From Methylotenera sp. (GTDB taxonomy: Bacteria > Pseudomonadota > Gammaproteobacteria > Burkholderiales > Methylophilaceae): 64,000 nucleotides of DNA. Positions within the stretch are counted from its first letter, which is position 1. Every line of letters begins with the position of its first letter. The notes beneath the pieces are model-generated. The model was not told the origin of the DNA. It did not search any database and saw only the letters and a program-made list of their open reading frames with translations. The position numbers and the translations under genes were made by a program. Shown here in pieces: positions 22,383 to 47,359 of this stretch. The stretch lies in the NCBI GenBank assembly GCA_046594885.1, contig JBKJRD010000014.1, forward strand, positions 9,901 through 73,900, given 5' to 3'.

Positions 22383-23747
22383 ATGTTAGAAAACTTAACT
22401 GGGCGCTTACAGGGCGTCATCAAAAACCTGCGCGGCCAAGCGCGATTAACGGAAGAAAATATGAGTGATGCCATGCGCGAAGTGCGCATGGCTTTATTAG
22501 AGGCCGATGTGGCTTTGCCAGTGGTAAAAGACTTTATTACCAAAGTAAAAGAGCGCGCGCAGGGCAAAGACGTGCTGCAAAGCTTAACGCCAGGGCAAGC
22601 AGTGATTGAGGTGGTGAATCAAGAGCTGACAGAGTTGATGGGTAAAGCCAATGTTGGTTTAAATTTAGCCACACAACCACCGGCAATTATCCTCATGGCG
22701 GGTTTACAGGGCTCTGGTAAAACAACCACATCAGCCAAATTAGCAAAGCTATTAAAAGAGCAAAAGAAAAAAGTGCTGCTGGCGAGTGCCGATATTTATC
22801 GTCCAGCGGCAATCACGCAACTGCAAACATTGGCTAAGCAATTAAATATTGATTGTTTTGATAGTAACGTTAATCAAAAGCCGCTTGATATTGCGCACGA
22901 TGCGTTGGCTTTTGCTAAGCGCGGCTACTATGACGTTTTAATTTTTGATACCGCAGGCCGTTTGGGTATTGATGAAGCCATGATGGCGGAAATTAAAGCG
23001 CTGCATGATTACCTAAAACCAATCGAAACCTTATTCGTAGTGGATGCCATGCAAGGTCAAGATGCGGTGAATACCGCTAAGGCTTTTGGCGAAACCTTAC
23101 CCTTAACTGGCGTGGTATTAACCAAATTAGATGGTGATGCACGTGGCGGCGCCGCATTGTCCGTGCGGCAGGTGACAGGCAAGCCGATTAAGTTTATCGG
23201 CGTAAGCGAAAAAGTAGATGGATTAGAGCCGTTTTACCCAGACCGTATGGCTGGACGCATATTGGGCATGGGCGATGTGCTGGGCTTGATTGAGCAAGCG
23301 CATAAAAACGTTGATATGCTTGAAGCACAAAAGGTTGCCGATAAAATAAAATCAGGCAGTAAATTTGATCTGGAAGATTTTAAAAGCCAAATGAGTCAGA
23401 TGCGAAAAATGGGCGGCATGGGCGCGTTAATGGATAAAATGCCCGCACAGATGGCCAATATGGCGGCTAAGGTCAACAATGAAGATGCTGACAAATCGTT
23501 GCGGCGCATTGAAGGAATCATCAACAGCATGACGCCGCTTGAGCGTAAAAAACCAGAGTTGATTAAAGCCACCCGCAAAAAACGCATTGCCGCGGGCAGC
23601 GGGGTACAAGTGCAAGAAGTGAATCGTTTATTAAAACAGTTTGAAGAAACGCAAAAAATGATGAAAATGTTCAGCAAAGGTGGCATGGCAAAAATGATGC
23701 GTGGTATGGGCAGCATGATGGGCGCAAAATTACCGGGCATGCGTTAA
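22383..23747 (+). CDS. ffh: Signal recognition particle protein
   Basis: Motifs GLQGSGKTT, DTAGR and TKLDGDARGG; Met-rich M domain. Confidence 0.98.
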   Translation: MLENLTGRLQGVIKNLRGQARLTEENMSDAMREVRMALLEADVALPVVKDFITKVKERAQGKDVLQSLTPGQAVIEVVNQELTELMGKANVGLNLATQPPAIILMAGLQGSGKTTTSAKLAKLLKEQKKKVLLASADIYRPAAITQLQTLAKQLNIDCFDSNVNQKPLDIAHDALAFAKRGYYDVLIFDTAGRLGIDEAMMAEIKALHDYLKPIETLFVVDAMQGQDAVNTAKAFGETLPLTGVVLTKLDGDARGGAALSVRQVTGKPIKFIGVSEKVDGLEPFYPDRMAGRILGMGDVLGLIEQAHKNVDMLEAQKVADKIKSGSKFDLEDFKSQMSQMRKMGGMGALMDKMPAQMANMAAKVNNEDADKSLRRIEGIINSMTPLERKKPELIKATRKKRIAAGSGVQVQEVNRLLKQFEETQKMMKMFSKGGMAKMMRGMGSMMGAKLPGMR

Positions 23748-24070: not shown

Positions 24071-24146
24071 GGGGCGTTAGCTCAGCTGGTAGAGCAGCGG
24101 ACTTTTAATCCGTTTGTCGTGGGTTCGATCCCCGCACGCCCTACCA
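24071..24146 (+). tRNA. tRNA-Lys (anticodon TTT)
   Basis: 76-nt cloverleaf: acceptor GGGGCGT/ACGCCCT, D arm AGCTCAGCTGGTAGAGC, anticodon loop CTTTTAA, T loop GTTCGATC, encoded CCA. Confidence 0.97.
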
Positions 24147-24181
24147 ATTCAGTGTTTTGCAAAGTATCAGAACACATCTAG

Positions 24182-24207
24182 AACCCGCCTAAGAGCGGGT
24201 TTTTTAT
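24182..24207 (+). terminator. Intrinsic terminator after tRNA-Lys
   Basis: AACCCGC-ctaaga-GCGGGTT followed by a T tract. Confidence 0.8.
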
Positions 24208-24243
24208 TGCCTGTGACTTTTGAAGATTTGAGCCAGAGCTTGA

Positions 24244-24275
24244 GACTCATAATCCGTTGGTACTGTGTTCAACTC
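24244..24275 (+). pseudogene. Degenerate fragment of a CAT-anticodon tRNA (Met/Ile2 type), anticodon arm to T arm
   Basis: GACTCATAATCCGTTGGT-ACTGTGTTCAACTC resembles the anticodon loop (CTCATAA), variable loop and T arm; no acceptor or CCA end; followed by a hairpin and T tract. Confidence 0.6.
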
Positions 24276-24337
24276 GTAGAGAAAAGACGACTTAGGGAGA
24301 AATCTCTAGGTCGTTTTTGTATATGAGTGATGCATAT

Positions 24338-24381
24338 TGAAAATCCGCGTGTCGCAGGTTAGATTCCCACTCCAGCCACCA
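24338..24381 (+). pseudogene. Degenerate 3' half of tRNA-Phe (GAA)
   Basis: TGAAAATCCGCGTGTCGCAGGTTAGATTCCCACTCCAGCCACCA: anticodon loop, T-arm-like segment and CCA end, with no 5' half. Confidence 0.7.
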
Positions 24382-24499
24382 GTATTTAAAAGCCTACAGA
24401 AATATGGGTTTTTTCTCATTTTGGGGTGAAAGAAATTATAATGCAGTCATCAAACCTAGTGTTTGGAATCGAAGCCAATAAACATTTTATAGGATTTAA

Positions 24500-25033
24500 A
24501 TGAAAAGCATTATTTACCTACTTGCCATCCTAATATGTCTCAATTCAATCAGCGTAGGGGCTTCAACAAAAATTGCGCTTGAAAACAAGCGTCATTCTAA
24601 TGCCCAAAAATCATCACAATTTGTCCCAGTTTATCGAATTGAAATTGGTTACCCTAGCGTTACCATGGCAATTAATGCAGTGAAAGAGCGCAAAGATACA
24701 ATAATAAAAGTTAACAACAAGCCCTTTGGTTGGCAAGAGCGCACTGGGCCGTGGTATGTTGTTAAAGAAGGTCAGCATATTGAATGGGCGTTTACCGAAG
24801 GCGGGCATTACGCACACCCTAGTGTGATTAAACGAATCATAGACGTTGGATCAAAAAGTCACGTGAGTGTGGATATGGCTTTTAAATGTGAAGCTCCACG
24901 CAAAGATGACTGTTATAAATTGTTAGGCGAGTTTAAAGAAGTTAAAACACTTATCTTTAATGTCTACAGAAAGAAATTTATCACACACCCAAATGCAGTG
25001 TCGATATGGAAAGGCGTTGATAGCTTAGAATAA
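24500..25033 (+). CDS. Hypothetical secreted protein, the only cargo of the tRNA-Lys islet
   Basis: 177-aa ORF with an N-terminal signal-like segment; AT-rich. Confidence 0.6.
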   Translation: MKSIIYLLAILICLNSISVGASTKIALENKRHSNAQKSSQFVPVYRIEIGYPSVTMAINAVKERKDTIIKVNNKPFGWQERTGPWYVVKEGQHIEWAFTEGGHYAHPSVIKRIIDVGSKSHVSVDMAFKCEAPRKDDCYKLLGEFKEVKTLIFNVYRKKFITHPNAVSIWKGVDSLE

Positions 25034-25168
25034 ATTATCAACTGATTTCTTAATGGGAGAGCTAAAAGTAGATTCTAGCAACACTAAGAAATGGACAATT
25101 TATGATTTTTAACACCTGCTTTAAATTGAGTAAATTCTTCAAATATGATTAAACGTGACAATATTGAC

Positions 25169-25228
25169 GAGAATTAGTGAGAATTAGCGAATAAGGGCGG
25201 ATTTATTTCTATAATAATCAATAGGTTA
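25169..25228 (+). promoter_or_regulatory. att-arm-like region: tandem GAGAATTAG repeats and an IHF consensus site
   Basis: GAGAATTAG at 25169-25177 and 25179-25187; AATCAA-TAGG-TTA at 25216-25228 matches WATCAANNNNTTR; lies just upstream of the tRNA-Lys repeat. Confidence 0.55.
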
Positions 25229-25235
25229 AATCAAA

Positions 25236-25282
25236 TTTTAATCTGCTTTTCGTGGGTTCGATCCCCGCACGCCCTACCAATT
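25236..25282 (+). repeat. Second copy of the tRNA-Lys 3' half (attR-like)
   Basis: TTTTAATC-tgcttt-TCGTGGGTTCGATCCCCGCACGCCCTACCAATT, followed by a terminator-like hairpin at about 25311-25337. Confidence 0.9.
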
Positions 25283-25817
25283 TCAAGTTCTAGCAGATTC
25301 AAAAACGTATAAAAACCCACCACAGTGCGGGTTTTTTATCTTCTGTAGTTTCACTGATTTATCTAGACTTTACAGAGGATACAGCTTAAAGCCGCCTGTA
25401 TTACTCGTACAAAGGCTATCGAAAGATAAATCTCTAAGTTGTTCTAATTGTATTGCCTACAAATCATGCTATGCCATCCCCTTAATCACTTATTCACAAT
25501 AGTTTTTATAAGTGATGCCGAGCAGATACTTACGTAAATAATAAGAGCATAATGGGTCGTTGACAACACCTTGTGAAATATTCAAATGCAAATTCGCTGT
25601 GCGGAAATCTCATCATACCAATGCCAAAGTTTTAGCTCATGAAAGTAGAGAGCAATCATGAGAGCACATTAAGCAAAGTAAGTGATGTGGTGAACGCTTT
25701 ATGGGCTGTCCACTTTAGAAGCTTGAAGCCAACAGATGGCGTCCTTAGAATTTATGAAACCACTATTTGTGCCGCATACTTACTTTAATTCTAATATTGA
25801 TGCGCTAAGTTGGATTA

Positions 25818-28067
25818 ATGAATACCACTAAAAAACTCTGGCTATATTTAGCGATACTACTTGTCGCTTCTTTTACTGTCCTGCTTTGGGTGGGCTCAGA
25901 GGTCTACCGTCAAGCGCCTCCCATGCCTGAGAGAGTCATTAGCAGCAATGATAAAGTCATCTACACCCGTGCTGACATCGAGCAGGGACGCCAGGTATGG
26001 CAATCCATAGGCGGTATGCAGCTTGGGTCTATCTGGGGGCACGGCAGTTATGTTGCGCCCGACTGGAGTGCCGACTGGCTACACCGTGAGGCAATGGCGG
26101 TTCTTGATATTTGGGCGCAAAGCAATGCCGGCACCACCAGTTACCAGCAATTGTCCGCTGAACAACAGGCCTCGCTACGCGGGCGTCTTCAGATCAGAAT
26201 TCGCCAGAATACCTACGATGCAGATAGCCAGGTCATCACGCTCGACCATGATCGCACCGCCGCAATTCTCACAGTAGCCAGCCATTACCAGAGCCTGTTT
26301 GGCAACGATGCCGCAACGGCTGAACTGCGTGAAGCCTATGCCATGAAAAACAATACCGTGTCCAATGCAGAGCATCGCCATGCGTTGACGGCTTTTTTCT
26401 GGTGGACTTCCTGGGCCGCTGTGACCGAACGCCCAGGGAGTGCCATCAGCTATACCAGTAACTGGCCCGGAGAGCCGCTGGTTGGCAATAGCCCGCCATC
26501 CAGCACTTATGTCTGGTCTGCGTTCAGTGTTCTGTTTCTCATTGCTGGTATTGCATTGCTGGGCTGGCATCATGCAGTTTCGGAAGGGCGCCGACCTGAA
26601 ACCCACACACTACCTGACTCGGATCCGATGCGGTCGATCCGCATAACGCCTTCGATGCTGGCTACCGCCAAATATTTCTGGCTTTTGCTGGGCATGTTCT
26701 TGCTGCAGATATTATTGGGCAGCATCACTGCGCATTATCAGATTGAAGGCCAACATCAGTACGGATTTAATCTGTCGGATGTTTTACCGTATGCTCTGAC
26801 CCGCACCTGGCATACCCAGCTTGCCGTGTTGTGGATAGCGACTGCATGGCTGGCCACTGGTCTTTACATAGCGCCGGCAATTTCCGGGCATGAGCCAAGG
26901 TTTCAGCGCCTGGGCGTCAATGTACTTTGGGTTTGCCTGATCATCATTGTTGTCGGCGCCTTTACCGGGCAATGGTTCGCCGTCATGCAAAAAATGGGGC
27001 TGGAATATAACTTCTGGTTTGGTCATCAAGGCTGGGAATATTCGGATATGGGCCGTTTCTGGCAATGGTTTCTGTTCATCGGACTGGTTTTATGGCTGGT
27101 TCTGGTTGGCCGCGCGCTTTGGCCAGCGCTGCGTACCAGAAGTGAATCGCGATCCATCATTGCCTTGCTTATGCTATCCACCACTGCCATCGGCCTATTT
27201 TATGCGGCCGCCTTAATCTCAAATGAACATAGCCATCTATCAACCATTGAATATTGGCGATGGTGGTTGGTGCATCTTTGGGTTGAAGGGTTTTTTGAAG
27301 TTTTCGCCACGGCAGTGCTTGCGATCATTTTCACGCGTCTCGGCTTGTTGCCCATCAAGACGGCAACCATAGCGGTGCTGTTCGCCACCATTATTTTTAT
27401 GGCAGGCGGGGTGCTTGGCACATTACATCATCTTTATTTTAGCGGTACGCCCATGGCGGTACTCGCACTAGGTGCGAGTTTTTCTGCGCTTGAGGTGGTA
27501 CCGCTTGCGTATATTGGATTTGAGGCTTATCACCATTACAAAATAGGCATGGCAGTGCCCTGGATGCAGCGTTATCACTGGCCTGTGATGTTTTTCCTGG
27601 CGGTTTCCTTCTGGAATATTATTGGCGCTGGGCTATTGGGGTTTCTCATCAATCCGCCGCTTTCGCTTTACTATATGCAAGGCCTGAACCTGACACCTTT
27701 GCATGGCCATACCGCCTTGTTCGGCGTGTACGGCATGCTAGGCATTGGTCTCGTCCTGTTTTGTCTGCGCGGCCTCAAGCCCAATCTGATCTGGGACGAG
27801 CGTATCCTCAAGGTCAGCTTCTGGTCGTTCAATATCGGGCTGGCATTGATGGCTGTATTGACATTGCTGCCTATCGGCACACTGCAGCTTTTGGCGGCGC
27901 TGGATCACGGCTACTGGTATGCACGTTCGGCAGAATTTATGCAACAACCCTTAATAGAAACATTGGTATGGATGCGAGTGCCTGGGGATGTTATTTTTAG
28001 CATTGGGGCATTGGCTCTATGTTGGTTCTTTGTGGGTTTATGGGTTAAACCAAAGCACGAAGATTAG
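25818..28067 (+). CDS. norB: Quinol-dependent nitric oxide reductase (qNor, single long subunit)
   Basis: 749 aa; N-terminal GSIWGHGSYVAPDWSADWLH; ligand motifs RTWHTQL, WWLVHLWVEGFFE, GTLHHLYF and HGHTALFG. Confidence 0.95.
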   Translation: MNTTKKLWLYLAILLVASFTVLLWVGSEVYRQAPPMPERVISSNDKVIYTRADIEQGRQVWQSIGGMQLGSIWGHGSYVAPDWSADWLHREAMAVLDIWAQSNAGTTSYQQLSAEQQASLRGRLQIRIRQNTYDADSQVITLDHDRTAAILTVASHYQSLFGNDAATAELREAYAMKNNTVSNAEHRHALTAFFWWTSWAAVTERPGSAISYTSNWPGEPLVGNSPPSSTYVWSAFSVLFLIAGIALLGWHHAVSEGRRPETHTLPDSDPMRSIRITPSMLATAKYFWLLLGMFLLQILLGSITAHYQIEGQHQYGFNLSDVLPYALTRTWHTQLAVLWIATAWLATGLYIAPAISGHEPRFQRLGVNVLWVCLIIIVVGAFTGQWFAVMQKMGLEYNFWFGHQGWEYSDMGRFWQWFLFIGLVLWLVLVGRALWPALRTRSESRSIIALLMLSTTAIGLFYAAALISNEHSHLSTIEYWRWWLVHLWVEGFFEVFATAVLAIIFTRLGLLPIKTATIAVLFATIIFMAGGVLGTLHHLYFSGTPMAVLALGASFSALEVVPLAYIGFEAYHHYKIGMAVPWMQRYHWPVMFFLAVSFWNIIGAGLLGFLINPPLSLYYMQGLNLTPLHGHTALFGVYGMLGIGLVLFCLRGLKPNLIWDERILKVSFWSFNIGLALMAVLTLLPIGTLQLLAALDHGYWYARSAEFMQQPLIETLVWMRVPGDVIFSIGALALCWFFVGLWVKPKHED

Positions 28068-28258: not shown

Positions 28259-29035
28259 ATGATGATACTTAACCATCAAATTTACCCAATTTTTTTATCT
28301 TTACTACTTTTTTTTTCTGTGAGTGTAAACGCTGCTGAGGCAAATCAAAAAGTAGTTATTTTTGCCGCAGCCAGCTTAACAGATGCGATTAATGCAATCG
28401 CGGATAGTTATGAAAAGCAAAATAATATTGAAATTCAAACTTCATTTGCCGCTTCATCAACGCTGGCTAAACAAATAGAAAACGGCGCACCTGCTGATAT
28501 TTTTATTTCGGCAGACACAAAGTGGATGCAGTATTTAACAGATAAAAATGTGTTAAGTAATACACCTATAATCAATTTGTTGGGTAATCATCTGGTTTTA
28601 ATCGCCCCCAAAGGGCGCGGTTTTAAAGTTAACATGCAAAAATCATTCAATTTTGCGGGCGCCTTTCAAGGTAAGCTTTGTACGGGTGAAACAGAATCGG
28701 TGCCAGTGGGTATTTACGCAAAACAGGCGCTTCAAACTTTGGGTTGGTGGGCTGCAATTAAATCGCGAATGGTGGGTACGCAAGATGTGCGGGCGGCTTT
28801 GGTATTGGTGGAGCGTGGCGAGTGCGCGGCAGGCATTGTTTATAAGACAGATGCTAAAGTTTCAGCTAAAGTAGATATATTGTCGGTTTTTCCCAACAAT
28901 AGCCACGACCCTATTGTTTACCCTTTAAGTTTAACTAAACAATCCAATCCAAACGCAATACATTTTTATAGCTACTTAAAATCAAAACAAGCAAAAGCGA
29001 TTTTTATACAATATGGTTTTCATTTTTTAGAGTAG
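28259..29035 (+). CDS. modA: Molybdate ABC transporter substrate-binding protein
   Basis: Motifs FAAASL, AASSTLAKQIENGAPADIFISA, VPVGIYA and DVRAAL. Confidence 0.95.
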   Translation: MMILNHQIYPIFLSLLLFFSVSVNAAEANQKVVIFAAASLTDAINAIADSYEKQNNIEIQTSFAASSTLAKQIENGAPADIFISADTKWMQYLTDKNVLSNTPIINLLGNHLVLIAPKGRGFKVNMQKSFNFAGAFQGKLCTGETESVPVGIYAKQALQTLGWWAAIKSRMVGTQDVRAALVLVERGECAAGIVYKTDAKVSAKVDILSVFPNNSHDPIVYPLSLTKQSNPNAIHFYSYLKSKQAKAIFIQYGFHFLE

Positions 29036-29045
29036 TAATAAAGCC

Positions 29046-29756
29046 ATGCAAGCCTTTTTAAGTTTTACGCCAGCAGAATTAGCCATTGTCTGGCTCTCTG
29101 TCAAAGTGGCGCTGTTGTGTGTGCTGATTATTCTTATTCCCGGTATCGCGGTGTCATGGCTGTTGGCCAGAAAGTCTTTTTTTGGCAAATCGTTACTAGA
29201 TAGCTTGGTGCATTTGCCTTTGGTGTTGCCACCCGTTGTGCCTGGTTTTTTACTGCTTTTATTATTGGGTAATCAAGGGCTTATTGGCAAACATCTGCAT
29301 ACCTATTTTGGTTTTAGCCTTGCTTTCACCTGGATGGGCGCGGTGGTTGCCTCTGCGGTAATGGCGTTTCCATTAATGGTGCGCTCCACCCGCCTAGCCA
29401 TTTCACAGGTAGACCAACATCTAGAAATCGCCGCGCAATCGCTAGGCGCACATCCCTTAAAAGTATTTTTCACTATCACCTTGCCGCTGGCAATGCCAGG
29501 CGTTATTACCGGCTTGATATTGGCTTTTAGCCGCAGTTTGGGCGAGTTTGGCGCAACCATTACCTTTGTTGGTAATATTGAAAATGAAACGCGCACATTG
29601 CCGTTGGCCATTTACAGTTATACGCAAATCCCCAATGGTGATTGGCCCGCAATACGTTTGGTGATTTTAAGCATGCTGTTAGCGCTTGGTGCATTAATGT
29701 TGAGCGACCATCTAGAACGTAAAGCCAATCAAAAAATTGGCCGTGGGCATGACTAA
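29046..29756 (+). CDS. modB: Molybdate ABC transporter permease
   Basis: Motifs LPLVLPPVVPG, FSRSLGEFGATI and TRTLPLAIY. Confidence 0.95.
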   Translation: MQAFLSFTPAELAIVWLSVKVALLCVLIILIPGIAVSWLLARKSFFGKSLLDSLVHLPLVLPPVVPGFLLLLLLGNQGLIGKHLHTYFGFSLAFTWMGAVVASAVMAFPLMVRSTRLAISQVDQHLEIAAQSLGAHPLKVFFTITLPLAMPGVITGLILAFSRSLGEFGATITFVGNIENETRTLPLAIYSYTQIPNGDWPAIRLVILSMLLALGALMLSDHLERKANQKIGRGHD

Positions 29757-29789
29757 ATACTTAACACGACCATATGACTGAAATTCCAG

Positions 29790-30428
29790 ATGATTGAAAT
29801 TCAAGCCAAGCTGCAACGCAGCCATTTTAATCTGGATGTGTCATTACAAATAAATACGCGGGTGACGGCCATATTCGGCCCTTCTGGTTCTGGCAAAAGT
29901 ACAGTGCTCAACATGATTGCAGGTATTACGCTGCCTGATAGCGGACGTATTGTCATCGGCGGCGAATGTGTTTTTGACAGTCAATTAGGCATTAACAAAC
30001 CGATTCATCAACGCAAACTAGGCTTGGTATTTCAAGATGGCAGGCTGTTTCCGCACATGACTGTTGCGCAGAATCTGGCTTATGCGTATCAATTAAATGC
30101 CTCACATAAGCAAGCTATTAGCTTAACTGAGGTGCTTGATTTACTAGAATTGAGTGCGCTAAAACAACAATATCCGCGTCAACTATCTGGTGGCGAAAAA
30201 CAGCGTGTTGCTTTGGGGCGCGCGCTATTAAGTTCGCCAACATTATTGATGTTAGACGAGCCATTGGCCTCGCTAGATGAACAATTAAAAGCACAAATTC
30301 TGCCTTATCTAACATTGGTTGCTGAACATATTCAGATTCCGATGCTTTATGTCAGCCATAGCAAAGCCGAGATTTTGCAATTAACCGAGCATATTGTGTA
30401 TATTAAAGATGGCCAGATTGTGCGTTAA
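29790..30428 (+). CDS. modC: Molybdate ABC transporter ATP-binding protein (short form, no TOBE domain)
   Basis: Motifs GPSGSGKST, FQDGRLFPH, LSGGEKQRVA and MLDEP. Confidence 0.9.
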   Translation: MIEIQAKLQRSHFNLDVSLQINTRVTAIFGPSGSGKSTVLNMIAGITLPDSGRIVIGGECVFDSQLGINKPIHQRKLGLVFQDGRLFPHMTVAQNLAYAYQLNASHKQAISLTEVLDLLELSALKQQYPRQLSGGEKQRVALGRALLSSPTLLMLDEPLASLDEQLKAQILPYLTLVAEHIQIPMLYVSHSKAEILQLTEHIVYIKDGQIVR

Positions 30429-46339: not shown

Positions 46340-47359
46340 ATGGCGATTTTAATCACAGGCGGCGCAGGTTATATTGGTTCACATACCTGCGTGCAAATGC
46401 TGGCGGCAGGGCAAGAAATTGTGGTGCTGGATAATTTATCCAACAGCTCAGCAGAGTCGCTTAAACGCGTTACGCAAATTTCTGGCAAAAAATTCCCGTT
46501 TATTCAAGCCGATATTCGCGATAAAACCGCCCTGCGCGAAATTTTTAAAGGTCATGCAATTAGCGCAGTCATTCACTTTGCAGGGCTTAAAGCGGTAGGT
46601 GAATCCGCCGAAAAACCGCAACTATATTACGATAATAACGTGGTTGGCAGCCTTAATTTGTTTGAGGTGATGGCCGAACTTAACGCTAAAAACATTGTGT
46701 TTAGCTCATCAGCCACCGTGTATGGCGATCCACAATCAGTGCCCATTAAAGAAGATTTTCCACTTAGCGCGACGAATCCTTATGGTCGTAGCAAGCTGAT
46801 GATTGAAGATATTTTGCGCGATTTGCACAAAGCCGACAACACTTGGCGCATCGCTTTGCTGCGCTACTTTAACCCAATTGGCGCGCATGATAGCGGCCTG
46901 ATTGGCGAAGACCCCAATGGCATTCCTAATAATTTATTGCCTTATGTGGCGCAAGTAGCCGTGGGCCGTTTGGCCAAATTGCGCATATTTGGTAACGATT
47001 ATGCAACGCATGACGGCACAGGCGTACGTGACTATATTCATGTGATGGATTTGGCAGATGGCCATGTGGCTGCCCTGGATTATTTGTCAAAAAATCAAGC
47101 TATGATGACGGTTAACTTAGGCACTGGCATTGGTTACAGTGTGCTAGACGTGGTACAAGCCTTTGCAAAAACCAGCACAAAAAATATACCGTATGAAATA
47201 TTACCCAGACGTATGGGCGATGTGGCCATTAACTATGCCGATGCAACAGTGGCTAAAACACTGTTAGGCTGGCAGGCAACCCGTAATTTAGACGATATGT
47301 GCCGCGATACTTGGCACTGGCAATCTAGCAACCCGAATGGGTTTGCAAAAAAAGTTTAG
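46340..47359 (+). CDS. galE: UDP-glucose 4-epimerase
   Basis: Motifs GGAGYIGSH, HFAGLKAVGES, YGRSK, LRYFNP and DGTGVRDYIHV. Confidence 0.97.
   Translation: MAILITGGAGYIGSHTCVQMLAAGQEIVVLDNLSNSSAESLKRVTQISGKKFPFIQADIRDKTALREIFKGHAISAVIHFAGLKAVGESAEKPQLYYDNNVVGSLNLFEVMAELNAKNIVFSSSATVYGDPQSVPIKEDFPLSATNPYGRSKLMIEDILRDLHKADNTWRIALLRYFNPIGAHDSGLIGEDPNGIPNNLLPYVAQVAVGRLAKLRIFGNDYATHDGTGVRDYIHVMDLADGHVAALDYLSKNQAMMTVNLGTGIGYSVLDVVQAFAKTSTKNIPYEILPRRMGDVAINYADATVAKTLLGWQATRNLDDMCRDTWHWQSSNPNGFAKKV

Follow-up and report, generated by a model that had tools for sequence, protein, structure and literature searches.

The subject of this report is a stack of partial transfer RNA (tRNA) genes that follows the tRNA-Lys gene in a 64-kb stretch of DNA (64,000 nt of contig JBKJRD010000014.1, assembly GCA_046594885.1). 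This stretch was analyzed as a whole and is called the window; coordinates without another label are window positions, and the features of the stack all lie on the + strand. Judged by ffh (22383–23747), the genome belongs to a Methylotenera-like member of the Methylophilaceae: the encoded protein is 93% identical to that of a Methylophilaceae chromosome, and the close ffh matches are all from Methylotenera or Methylophilus genomes. ARAGORN and Rfam report a single tRNA in the window, an intact tRNA-Lys(UUU) gene at 24071–24146 (Rfam RF00005, 69.2 bits). Its place behind ffh is conserved in L001, L004, L005, L007, and L014, where L-numbers denote the loci of related genomes and contigs that were fetched for comparison. 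The gene order upstream of ffh is syntenic with these relatives, and the region past tRNA-Lys varies genome by genome.

In the window, this region begins with an islet of 1.1 kb that is bracketed by the intact tRNA-Lys gene, which is both the integration target and the left boundary, and by a direct repeat of the 3′ part of the gene. The repeat (25236–25282) runs from T33 to the CCA plus 3 nt, is identical to the gene at 44/47 positions, with 31 exact bases at 25252–25282 (corresponding to 24119–24149), and forms the right boundary, of the type known as attR (att, attachment site); the repeat-to-repeat distance is 1133 bp. Each of the two Lys copies is followed by a terminator. Terminator 1 (24152–24207), behind the gene, is a double hairpin with a T tract (fold −20.9 kcal/mol, z −4.9) that resembles the hairpin behind tRNA-Lys in L007, and it is 79% identical over 33 nt to terminator 2 (25311–25341), an inverted repeat with a T tract behind the displaced Lys 3′ half. 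Terminator 2 is partly decayed, and the fold of 25283–25345 reaches just −8.7 kcal/mol (z −1.2). Between these two ends lie, in this order, a fragment of a tRNA(CAU) with its own hairpin, a tRNA-Phe 3′ half, the only long open reading frame (ORF) of the islet, and an arm related to that of an integrative element found elsewhere in the family.

The tRNA(CAU) piece, fragment A (24244–24281), covers tRNA positions ~30–66, i.e., the anticodon loop, the variable region, and the T arm, and is devoid of the acceptor 3′ strand and the CCA. It agrees with the Methylophilaceae tRNA(CAU) gene at 35/38 positions (3 mismatches), and 100 shuffled sequences gave 0 matches; a decayed copy of tRNA-Lys was considered as its source and ruled out, as the first 36 positions match the window’s own tRNA-Lys at 22/36 and tRNA(CAU) at 33/36. 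Behind it stands hairpin A (24283–24318; fold −21.2 kcal/mol, z −6.5), the terminator type of intact tRNA(CAU) genes in Methylophilaceae. It is identical at 35/35 positions to the terminator behind the intact tRNA(CAU) of Methylotenera versatilis 7 (L125) and nearly identical in six further genomes, with values of 92–97% for L115, L119, L132, and L129. Because both parts match the same gene, A and its hairpin together represent tRNA(CAU) from the anticodon loop to the terminator, minus about 12 nt (GGGCCACCA and a spacer). Hairpin A has kept the look of an efficient terminator. Fragment A itself is decaying, since metagenome variants of the A/hairpin A joint are less damaged and keep an intact T arm, with G at 24271 and CA at 24276–24277.

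How such fragments arise can be seen in the relatives. A scan for A-type sequences, with one genome per species, returned 55 stretches with 56 copies, exclusively from Methylophilaceae: 45 copies follow the full 5′ half of the 79-nt tRNA(CAU), 3 are cut at the end of the locus, and 8 follow unrelated DNA. From their left flanks, these eight 3′ fragments are taken to mark islands in tRNA(CAU); in most of them identity starts at A31/C32, and in L120 and L142 it starts further 5′. A 7.3-kb island with a PF00589 integrase occupies tRNA(CAU) in L101, and repeat-bounded islets of 0.35–2.3 kb are common at this gene. ARAGORN labels the gene as Met, and its acceptor stem is GGCCCCT/AGGGGCC, which we take to be that of Escherichia coli ileX; on this assumption the tRNA is probably the lysidine-containing tRNA-Ile2. 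Two side observations concern the same gene. Displaced tRNA(CAU) fragments in L110 (minus strand, near 475) and L113 (6865) carry the loop CTTATAA; a single step separates it from the loop of tRNA(CAU), CTCATAA, and likewise from that of tRNA-Lys, CTTTTAA. This could reflect either simple decay or a mixed overlap region. Moreover, a provirus contig from IMG/VR (L084, 8341–12527), with a Mu-like transposase of 688 aa and repressor-like genes, ends beside an intact host tRNA(CAU) that is identical to the tRNA(CAU) of the soil metagenome holding the window.

The second piece, fragment B (24337–24381), is a 3′ half of tRNA-Phe(GAA) that extends from position 32/33 to the CCA. It matches the Sulfuriferula-type tRNA-Phe of L081–L083 at 43/45 positions (2 mismatches; 0 matches among shuffled sequences), that of L088 at 41/45, L087 at 39/45, and L085 at 36/45. 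The metagenome contigs that align to the Sulfuriferula tRNA-Phe are a mixture of many species. An exact B-type 3′ half is present in no Methylophilaceae species representative, and copies of the Phe 3′ half were absent from viral contigs. Fragment B is damaged, with a T-loop C changed to A and a T-stem G changed to A; the C that is normally conserved in the T-loop is gone, and so are two pairs of the T-stem. The terminator of the module (24388–24413) is likewise decayed (fold −6.8 kcal/mol) and homologous to the intact one behind the tRNA-Phe of L085.

An earlier note, made from the letters alone, had described in this place a stack of tRNA 3′ relics behind tRNA-Lys: a CAT-type fragment with its own hairpin and T tract, followed by a tRNA-Phe 3′ half ending in CCA with a decayed hairpin, each of them, as well as the Lys repeat, beginning at the anticodon arm. 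Every one of these features is present, with the CAT-type fragment reaching slightly further than had been noted (24281 instead of 24275). The two ways in which that description might have failed were both checked: the fragments align to tRNA genes and not to shuffled sequence, and ARAGORN finds neither of them to be part of a complete tRNA gene. Neither could serve as a tRNA, as both lack the 5′ half, in addition to the missing acceptor strand of A and the T-arm damage of B. The generic Rfam tRNA model sees them weakly, as 5′-truncated matches in the right register (13.1 bits for B and 10.9 bits for A, with a gathering score of 29), and the case for the fragments rests on their specific matches to real tRNA genes.

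Behind fragment B, the sole long ORF of the islet, ORF177 (24500–25033), encodes a conserved protein of 177 aa with a signal-peptide-like N terminus. Scans of genomes and metagenomes found relatives in three genomes and one metagenome contig, with amino acid identities of 90% (L085), 71% (L088), 70% (L086), and 65% (L087), and in all four contexts the gene lies directly behind a tRNA-Phe 3′ half and its terminator. The likeness to L085 extends to the DNA: window 24336–25043 is 90% identical over 716 nt to L085 7830–8543, from the anticodon loop to 10 nt past the ORF177 stop codon. In L085 and L087 the gene follows an intact tRNA-Phe and precedes another 3′ half of this tRNA, which begins with T33 and has its own copy of the terminator. 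The repeat of L085 matches exactly along 82 nt, that of L087 has decayed, and no integrase lies between the repeats. In L086 and L088 the unit comes with a 3′ half alone, after a degenerate 5′ part of tRNA-Phe. Viewed as a whole, these homologs form mini-islets of ~0.85 kb at tRNA-Phe (L085 7800–8725; L087 7758–8700; L088 700–2190), and L088 and L086 hold a second partial Phe fragment 1.4 kb downstream.

ORF177 is full-length in all four lineages, and its ratio of nonsynonymous to synonymous substitution rates (dN/dS) is 0.18–0.25. A ratio of about 0.2 marks it as a real gene maintained by selection. It is the cargo that moves together with the 3′ half of tRNA-Phe. Past the decayed Phe terminator, and ahead of the ORF, there is a promoter-like site (24413–24442; TTCTCA, 18 nt, TATAAT), whose TATAAT is kept in L085, which suggests that ORF177 has its own promoter. 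The protein has no family match in Pfam, NCBIfam, PHROGs, or PDB, relatives were absent from viral contigs, and the single-sequence AlphaFold model is unusable, with a predicted local distance difference test (pLDDT) score of 38.

Two further structures bring the three tRNA specificities together. The first is the 88-nt arm at 25148–25235, directly left of the Lys repeat, which is homologous (73% over 81 nt, E 3e-10) to the P-type arm that adjoins, on the left, the tRNA(CAU) repeat of the L101 island, with the junction to the loop at the same point; shorter matches occur in L124 and L127. One arm family is therefore found on a Lys half in the window and on CAU halves elsewhere. The second is L132, in which a 17-nt spacer separates an intact tRNA(CAU) and its hairpin A from GGATTGAAAATCCGTTTGTTGTGAGTTCGGTTACCGCACGCCCTACCA, a Phe anticodon loop (GGATTGAAAA) joined to a tRNA-Lys 3′ half. 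The order of CAU half, hairpin A, spacer, and Phe loop is common to L132 and the window; after the Phe loop, L132 continues with the Lys half, and the window with the Phe half, ORF177, the arm, and the Lys repeat. The L132 structure would be what recombination between B and the Lys repeat leaves behind, and its layout hints at the window arrangement minus the ORF177 segment. Since the window and L132 each hold all three, Lys, CAU, and Phe occur together in two independent stacks. On the minus strand of L132 the hybrid, with the Phe loop TTGAAAA on a decayed Lys 3′ half, lies at 2740–2926 and is followed by a terminator and galE.

The three tRNAs are alike where these joints lie. All of them carry TAGAGCAGCGGA directly before the anticodon loop and TCCG behind it, the difference between Lys and CAU amounts to just 2/27 positions around the crossover, and the anticodon stem shared by the three is different in Arg and Ser tRNAs (few others were in the sample). 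Identity to the parent genes starts at T33 in the Lys repeat, G30 in A, and T32/33 in B, which corresponds to the 5′ edge of the anticodon loop.

In relatives, tRNA-Lys, tRNA(CAU), and tRNA-Phe are all integration hot spots, with direct repeats that run from the anticodon loop through the terminator. For tRNA-Lys this follows from the different occupancy of the site in L001, L004, and L007. A tyrosine integrase (PF00589) lies directly 3′ of tRNA-Lys in L001; a 4-kb islet in L004 is bounded by tRNA-Lys and an exact 47-nt copy of its 3′ part, with the repeat beginning at C32; and L007 has neither integrase nor islet behind the gene, the repeat being absent within 8 kb. Read from its ORF translations, the L004 islet encodes porin-like and adenylate-forming-enzyme-like proteins and a HigB/HigA-like pair, and an N-terminal integrase fragment and a protein with a Fic motif (HPFREGNGR) come past the repeat; the whole of L004 9620–16945 suggests a tandem array of remnants.

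From their sequences, A, B, and the Lys repeat are att-type modules, each a tRNA 3′ half with its terminator, derived from three tRNA genes, and the alignments given above define the identity, origin, and boundaries of these modules. Our reading is that they are decayed att modules of tyrosine-integrase elements in the tRNA-Lys hot spot, probably joined by recombination between non-cognate att sites, and we give it a probability of roughly 0.7. This agrees with the earlier proposal that the site holds att scars of three tRNA specificities from nested or recombined islands, which the islands of relatives, the L101 arm, and the L132 hybrid now support.

Elements of this kind have their crossover where the anticodon loop begins on its 5′ side, and in this family they carry the 3′ half of the target tRNA with a copy of the terminator, so that integration restores a complete and terminated gene; by this standard logic of att sites, the 3′ part of the present tRNA-Lys, from about 24103 on, would have been supplied by an element. 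The stretch 24103–25282 is a degenerate, integrase-less islet downstream of ffh, built of att modules; its two outer sites, the intact tRNA-Lys and the displaced 3′ half, are cognate. Inside it, A with its hairpin is a tRNA(CAU) module, and B with its terminator and ORF177 corresponds to a small element that occupies tRNA-Phe in sister genomes. The recombination route and the order of events are inferred as follows. Related integrases would occasionally have recombined non-cognate att sites, and the safest route for this may have been integration into the displaced, non-essential 3′ half, whereby the working tRNA-Lys is never interrupted. Such accretion would produce the observed order, with the CAU half at one end and, at the opposite one, the L101-type arm beside the Lys half; the integrases and the bulk of the cargo would have been lost through later deletions. 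Three successive insertions at this site, or one composite element that brought the inner relics along, could each have produced the stack; a composite arm that has moved is favored by the layout of A, hairpin, spacer, and Phe loop in common with L132.

More generally, these structures suggest that mobile elements of this family sometimes recombine between non-matching tRNA targets. A bolder form of this idea, which we hold only tentatively and consider somewhat improbable as a whole, is that the Methylophilaceae harbor a guild of related tyrosine integrases that cross-recombine the att sites in their Lys-UUU, CAU, and Phe-GAA genes, which have the anticodon stem in common. Elements could in this manner hop between targets, put new modules of 3′ half and terminator before old ones, and shuttle cargo such as ORF177; the stack would be a fossil record of target switching, and L132 another frame of it.

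Several observations weigh against the reading of the stack as att modules joined by integrases. The islet has no integrase, and tblastn with the integrases of L001 and L101 gave no match in the whole 64-kb window, so that no recombinase can be assigned to these joints. The anticodon differs within the presumed overlap, by 2/7 nt between Lys and CAU and by more for Phe, and heterology in the overlap normally inhibits tyrosine recombinases. Homology to the Phe locus stops 10 nt past ORF177, at a joint (25043/25044) that is not att-like and therefore calls for at least one illegitimate deletion. The flanks left of A (24208–24243) and of B (24319–24336) match no arm among the fetched loci, and terminator 1 resembles the tRNA-Lys terminator of L007, a locus with no repeat within 8 kb, so that either of the two terminators may be the native one. 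In addition, the comparison of A and B was with the tRNA(CAU) and tRNA-Phe loci of other genomes.

As an alternative, the inner modules might have moved without any integrase, through homologous or microhomology recombination, gene conversion, or template switching between tRNA loci with a shared 12-nt core and similar terminators. The joint behind ORF177, the TAGAGCAGCGGA and TCCG blocks of the three tRNAs, and the likeness of the terminators (repeat families D5 and D6, with terminator-1-like hairpins behind other tRNAs) are what such exchange would use or leave. We nevertheless regard it as rather unlikely, given that A, B, and the Lys repeat all begin to match their genes past the shared 12-nt block, at positions 30–33, where the repeats of the L101 and L004 islands start as well, and that the L101-type arm meets the Lys loop at the very point at which the arm of L101 meets the CAU loop. 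An origin that involves no movement at all, with A and B as pseudogenes of an ancestral Lys-CAU-Phe tandem cluster that decayed in place, would fit their common orientation, their close spacing, and the terminator on each, and is barely credible: relatives carry tRNA-Lys alone behind ffh, the tRNA(CAU) of the family lies behind rpoD and tRNA-Phe elsewhere, both fragments are without a 5′ half and break at the same loop position, and the gene downstream of B belongs to the tRNA-Phe locus of relatives. Joining of the tRNA(CAU) and tRNA-Lys loci by a chromosomal rearrangement was also considered and dropped, as galE in the window has no tRNA fragment nearby.

It is quite improbable that the fragments are kept for a function, as spare landing pads, decoy att sites, or templates of tRNA-half-like small RNAs with their own terminators; the latter two had been offered as alternatives in the earlier note and found no support. 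The strength and full preservation of hairpin A, the persistence of the A/hairpin A joint in diverged metagenome variants, and the hairpin with T tract at the end of each module are what could be expected of such a role. As judged from their sequence, however, the fragments seem inert and decaying, and a present function is unlikely because the T arm and terminator of B are damaged, A has lost its acceptor strand and is more decayed than its variants, and no convincing promoter precedes A, which also stands behind the strong terminator 1. As to the assembly, the genome is metagenome-derived, its sequence is held by soil metagenome runs only, and the exact 31-nt repeat shared by the gene and the displaced half equals the word length of the unitigs, so short reads cannot phase the two terminators. 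A chimeric join at this repeated tRNA sequence is still very improbable, since unitigs of an independent run span the internal joints: one tiles 24120–24264 (tRNA-Lys end, terminator 1, and A) and another 24235–25279 (A, B, ORF177, arm, and Lys repeat), both with 0 mismatches and at a depth similar to that of the flanks. Fragments A and B are also too unlike tRNA-Lys to cause misjoins, and the alternative phasing would be a 1.1-kb circle, i.e., the excised form of the same element.

Regarding known systems, the islands mapped by Islander are bounded by tRNA genes (tDNAs) whose 3′ part is supplied by the element, and tandem arrays and damaged fragments are known among them (PMC4383910). The window islet resembles these islands in its intact tRNA gene, its displaced 3′ fragment in direct orientation, and its identity from the anticodon loop (PMC4383910). 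Islander searches each tDNA for cognate fragments only and requires an integrase and a length of 2–200 kb; the islet, with no integrase and 1.1 kb, fails both of these filters, and it differs further in holding fragments of two other tRNAs and in repeats that reach into the terminator (PMC4383910). Point by point, there is a full tRNA (24071–24146) with a cognate 3′ fragment downstream on the same strand (25236–25282, 44/47), the Lys repeat, A, and B begin at the anticodon loop, which Islander recognizes as a crossover sublocation alongside the T-loop/acceptor junction, as the repeats of L004, L085, and L101 do, and the site is empty or otherwise occupied in relatives (no repeat in L007, different islands in L001 and L004); no integrase lies inside, and the length of 1133 bp falls outside the range.

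A second comparison is with the cis-mobilizable elements (CIMEs) of the Streptococcus ICESt1/ICESt3 family (ICE, integrative and conjugative element), short att-flanked elements without genes for recombination and transfer. They accrete when an element integrates into the att site of a resident, which yields composite arrays with internal att relics, all of one kind. The islet is similarly att-flanked and without integration and transfer genes, and differs in that its internal sites come from different tRNA genes; mobilization in trans could be predicted at most by analogy, the only hint of it being the layout of L132, like that of the window minus the ORF177 segment. The ORF177 unit at tRNA-Phe in L085 and L087 is likewise repeat-flanked and free of an integrase. 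In the tripartite Mesorhizobium ICE (ICE3), the att halves that delimit the regions reportedly differ in specificity, with tRNA-Phe and tRNA-Met among the targets. It is the nearest described case of side-by-side att halves of different specificity. Its regions form through several different site-specific recombinases, and it is a working system in which three recombinases and three directionality factors reassemble one circle (PMC5882170). The islet, in contrast, has no integrase, and its sites are decayed. A multipartite ICE would have several cognate integrases and directionality factors to reassemble its parts, whereas in the 64-kb window the tblastn search with two integrases of the family was empty and the neighboring genes are qNOR (a quinol-type nitric oxide reductase), ABC-transporter, AsmA, and Mla-type genes. 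Finally, integrases of the lambda type use, at low frequency, secondary sites that are like attB with a different overlap, and thereby create hybrid junctions. By analogy, the Phe-loop/Lys-body site of L132 might be such a junction, with the difference that the alternative sites here are other tRNA genes or displaced halves.

Partial tRNAs left by the integration of mobile elements are widespread in prokaryotes and mis-annotated as tRNA genes (PMC9897764). The passages searched in that work attribute the fragments to integration into tRNA genes and do not mention stacks of different isotypes behind a single gene (PMC9897764). The islet thus shows the classical tDNA-fragment signature in the form of a CIME-like remnant, and what is unusual about it is the stacking of non-cognate fragments, the Phe/Lys hybrid, and the occurrence of one arm on two tRNAs. 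Pipelines for mapping islands of the Islander type would miss such remnants because they require a cognate fragment and an integrase, and annotation should label the fragments as att relics, not as tRNA pseudogenes of unknown origin, and ORF177 as a conserved gene. If att sites of tRNAs with a common anticodon arm do recombine without being cognate, this would provide a concrete route by which integrases change their target tRNA, explain the reshuffling of attP arms and small cargo genes between loci, and supply att sites that are naturally close relatives of one another, on which integrase specificity could be studied.

The remaining parts of the islet and its surroundings deserve a brief description. 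The spacer left of fragment A (24208–24243) is possibly the remnant of the arm of an older element. It contains GACTTTT (24215–24221), like the Lys anticodon loop, and AGAGC (24235–24239), like the 3′ strand of the D stem; these motifs are statistically weak and could point to yet another att site that is now heavily decayed. On the other side of ORF177, the junction segment at 25034–25147 contains the point (25043) where the BLAST homology to the tRNA-Phe locus of L085 stops. Viral relatives of the L101 integrase (L144 and L145) have no tRNA or tRNA fragment nearby.

The genes around the islet include a quinol-type nitric oxide reductase (qNOR), an ABC transporter, and AsmA and Mla-type genes. 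Elsewhere in the window, a galE homolog (46340–47359) is 71.5% identical at the nucleotide level to the galE that follows tRNA(CAU) in L132 and L098, and is probably unrelated to the fragment stack. The qNOR gene (25818–28067), with a NorB cytochrome-c-like domain and COX1, lies directly downstream of the Lys repeat; its G+C content is 50–57%, compared to ~38–45% on either side, and it is absent behind ffh and tRNA-Lys in close relatives. It was probably acquired horizontally and is perhaps an older layer of the tRNA-Lys hot spot; no distal tRNA fragment was seen past it. The ABC-transporter genes that come next (28259–30428; solute-binding protein, permease, and ATPase) adjoin tRNA-Lys in strain KB13 (L014, 9530–11450), in the opposite orientation.

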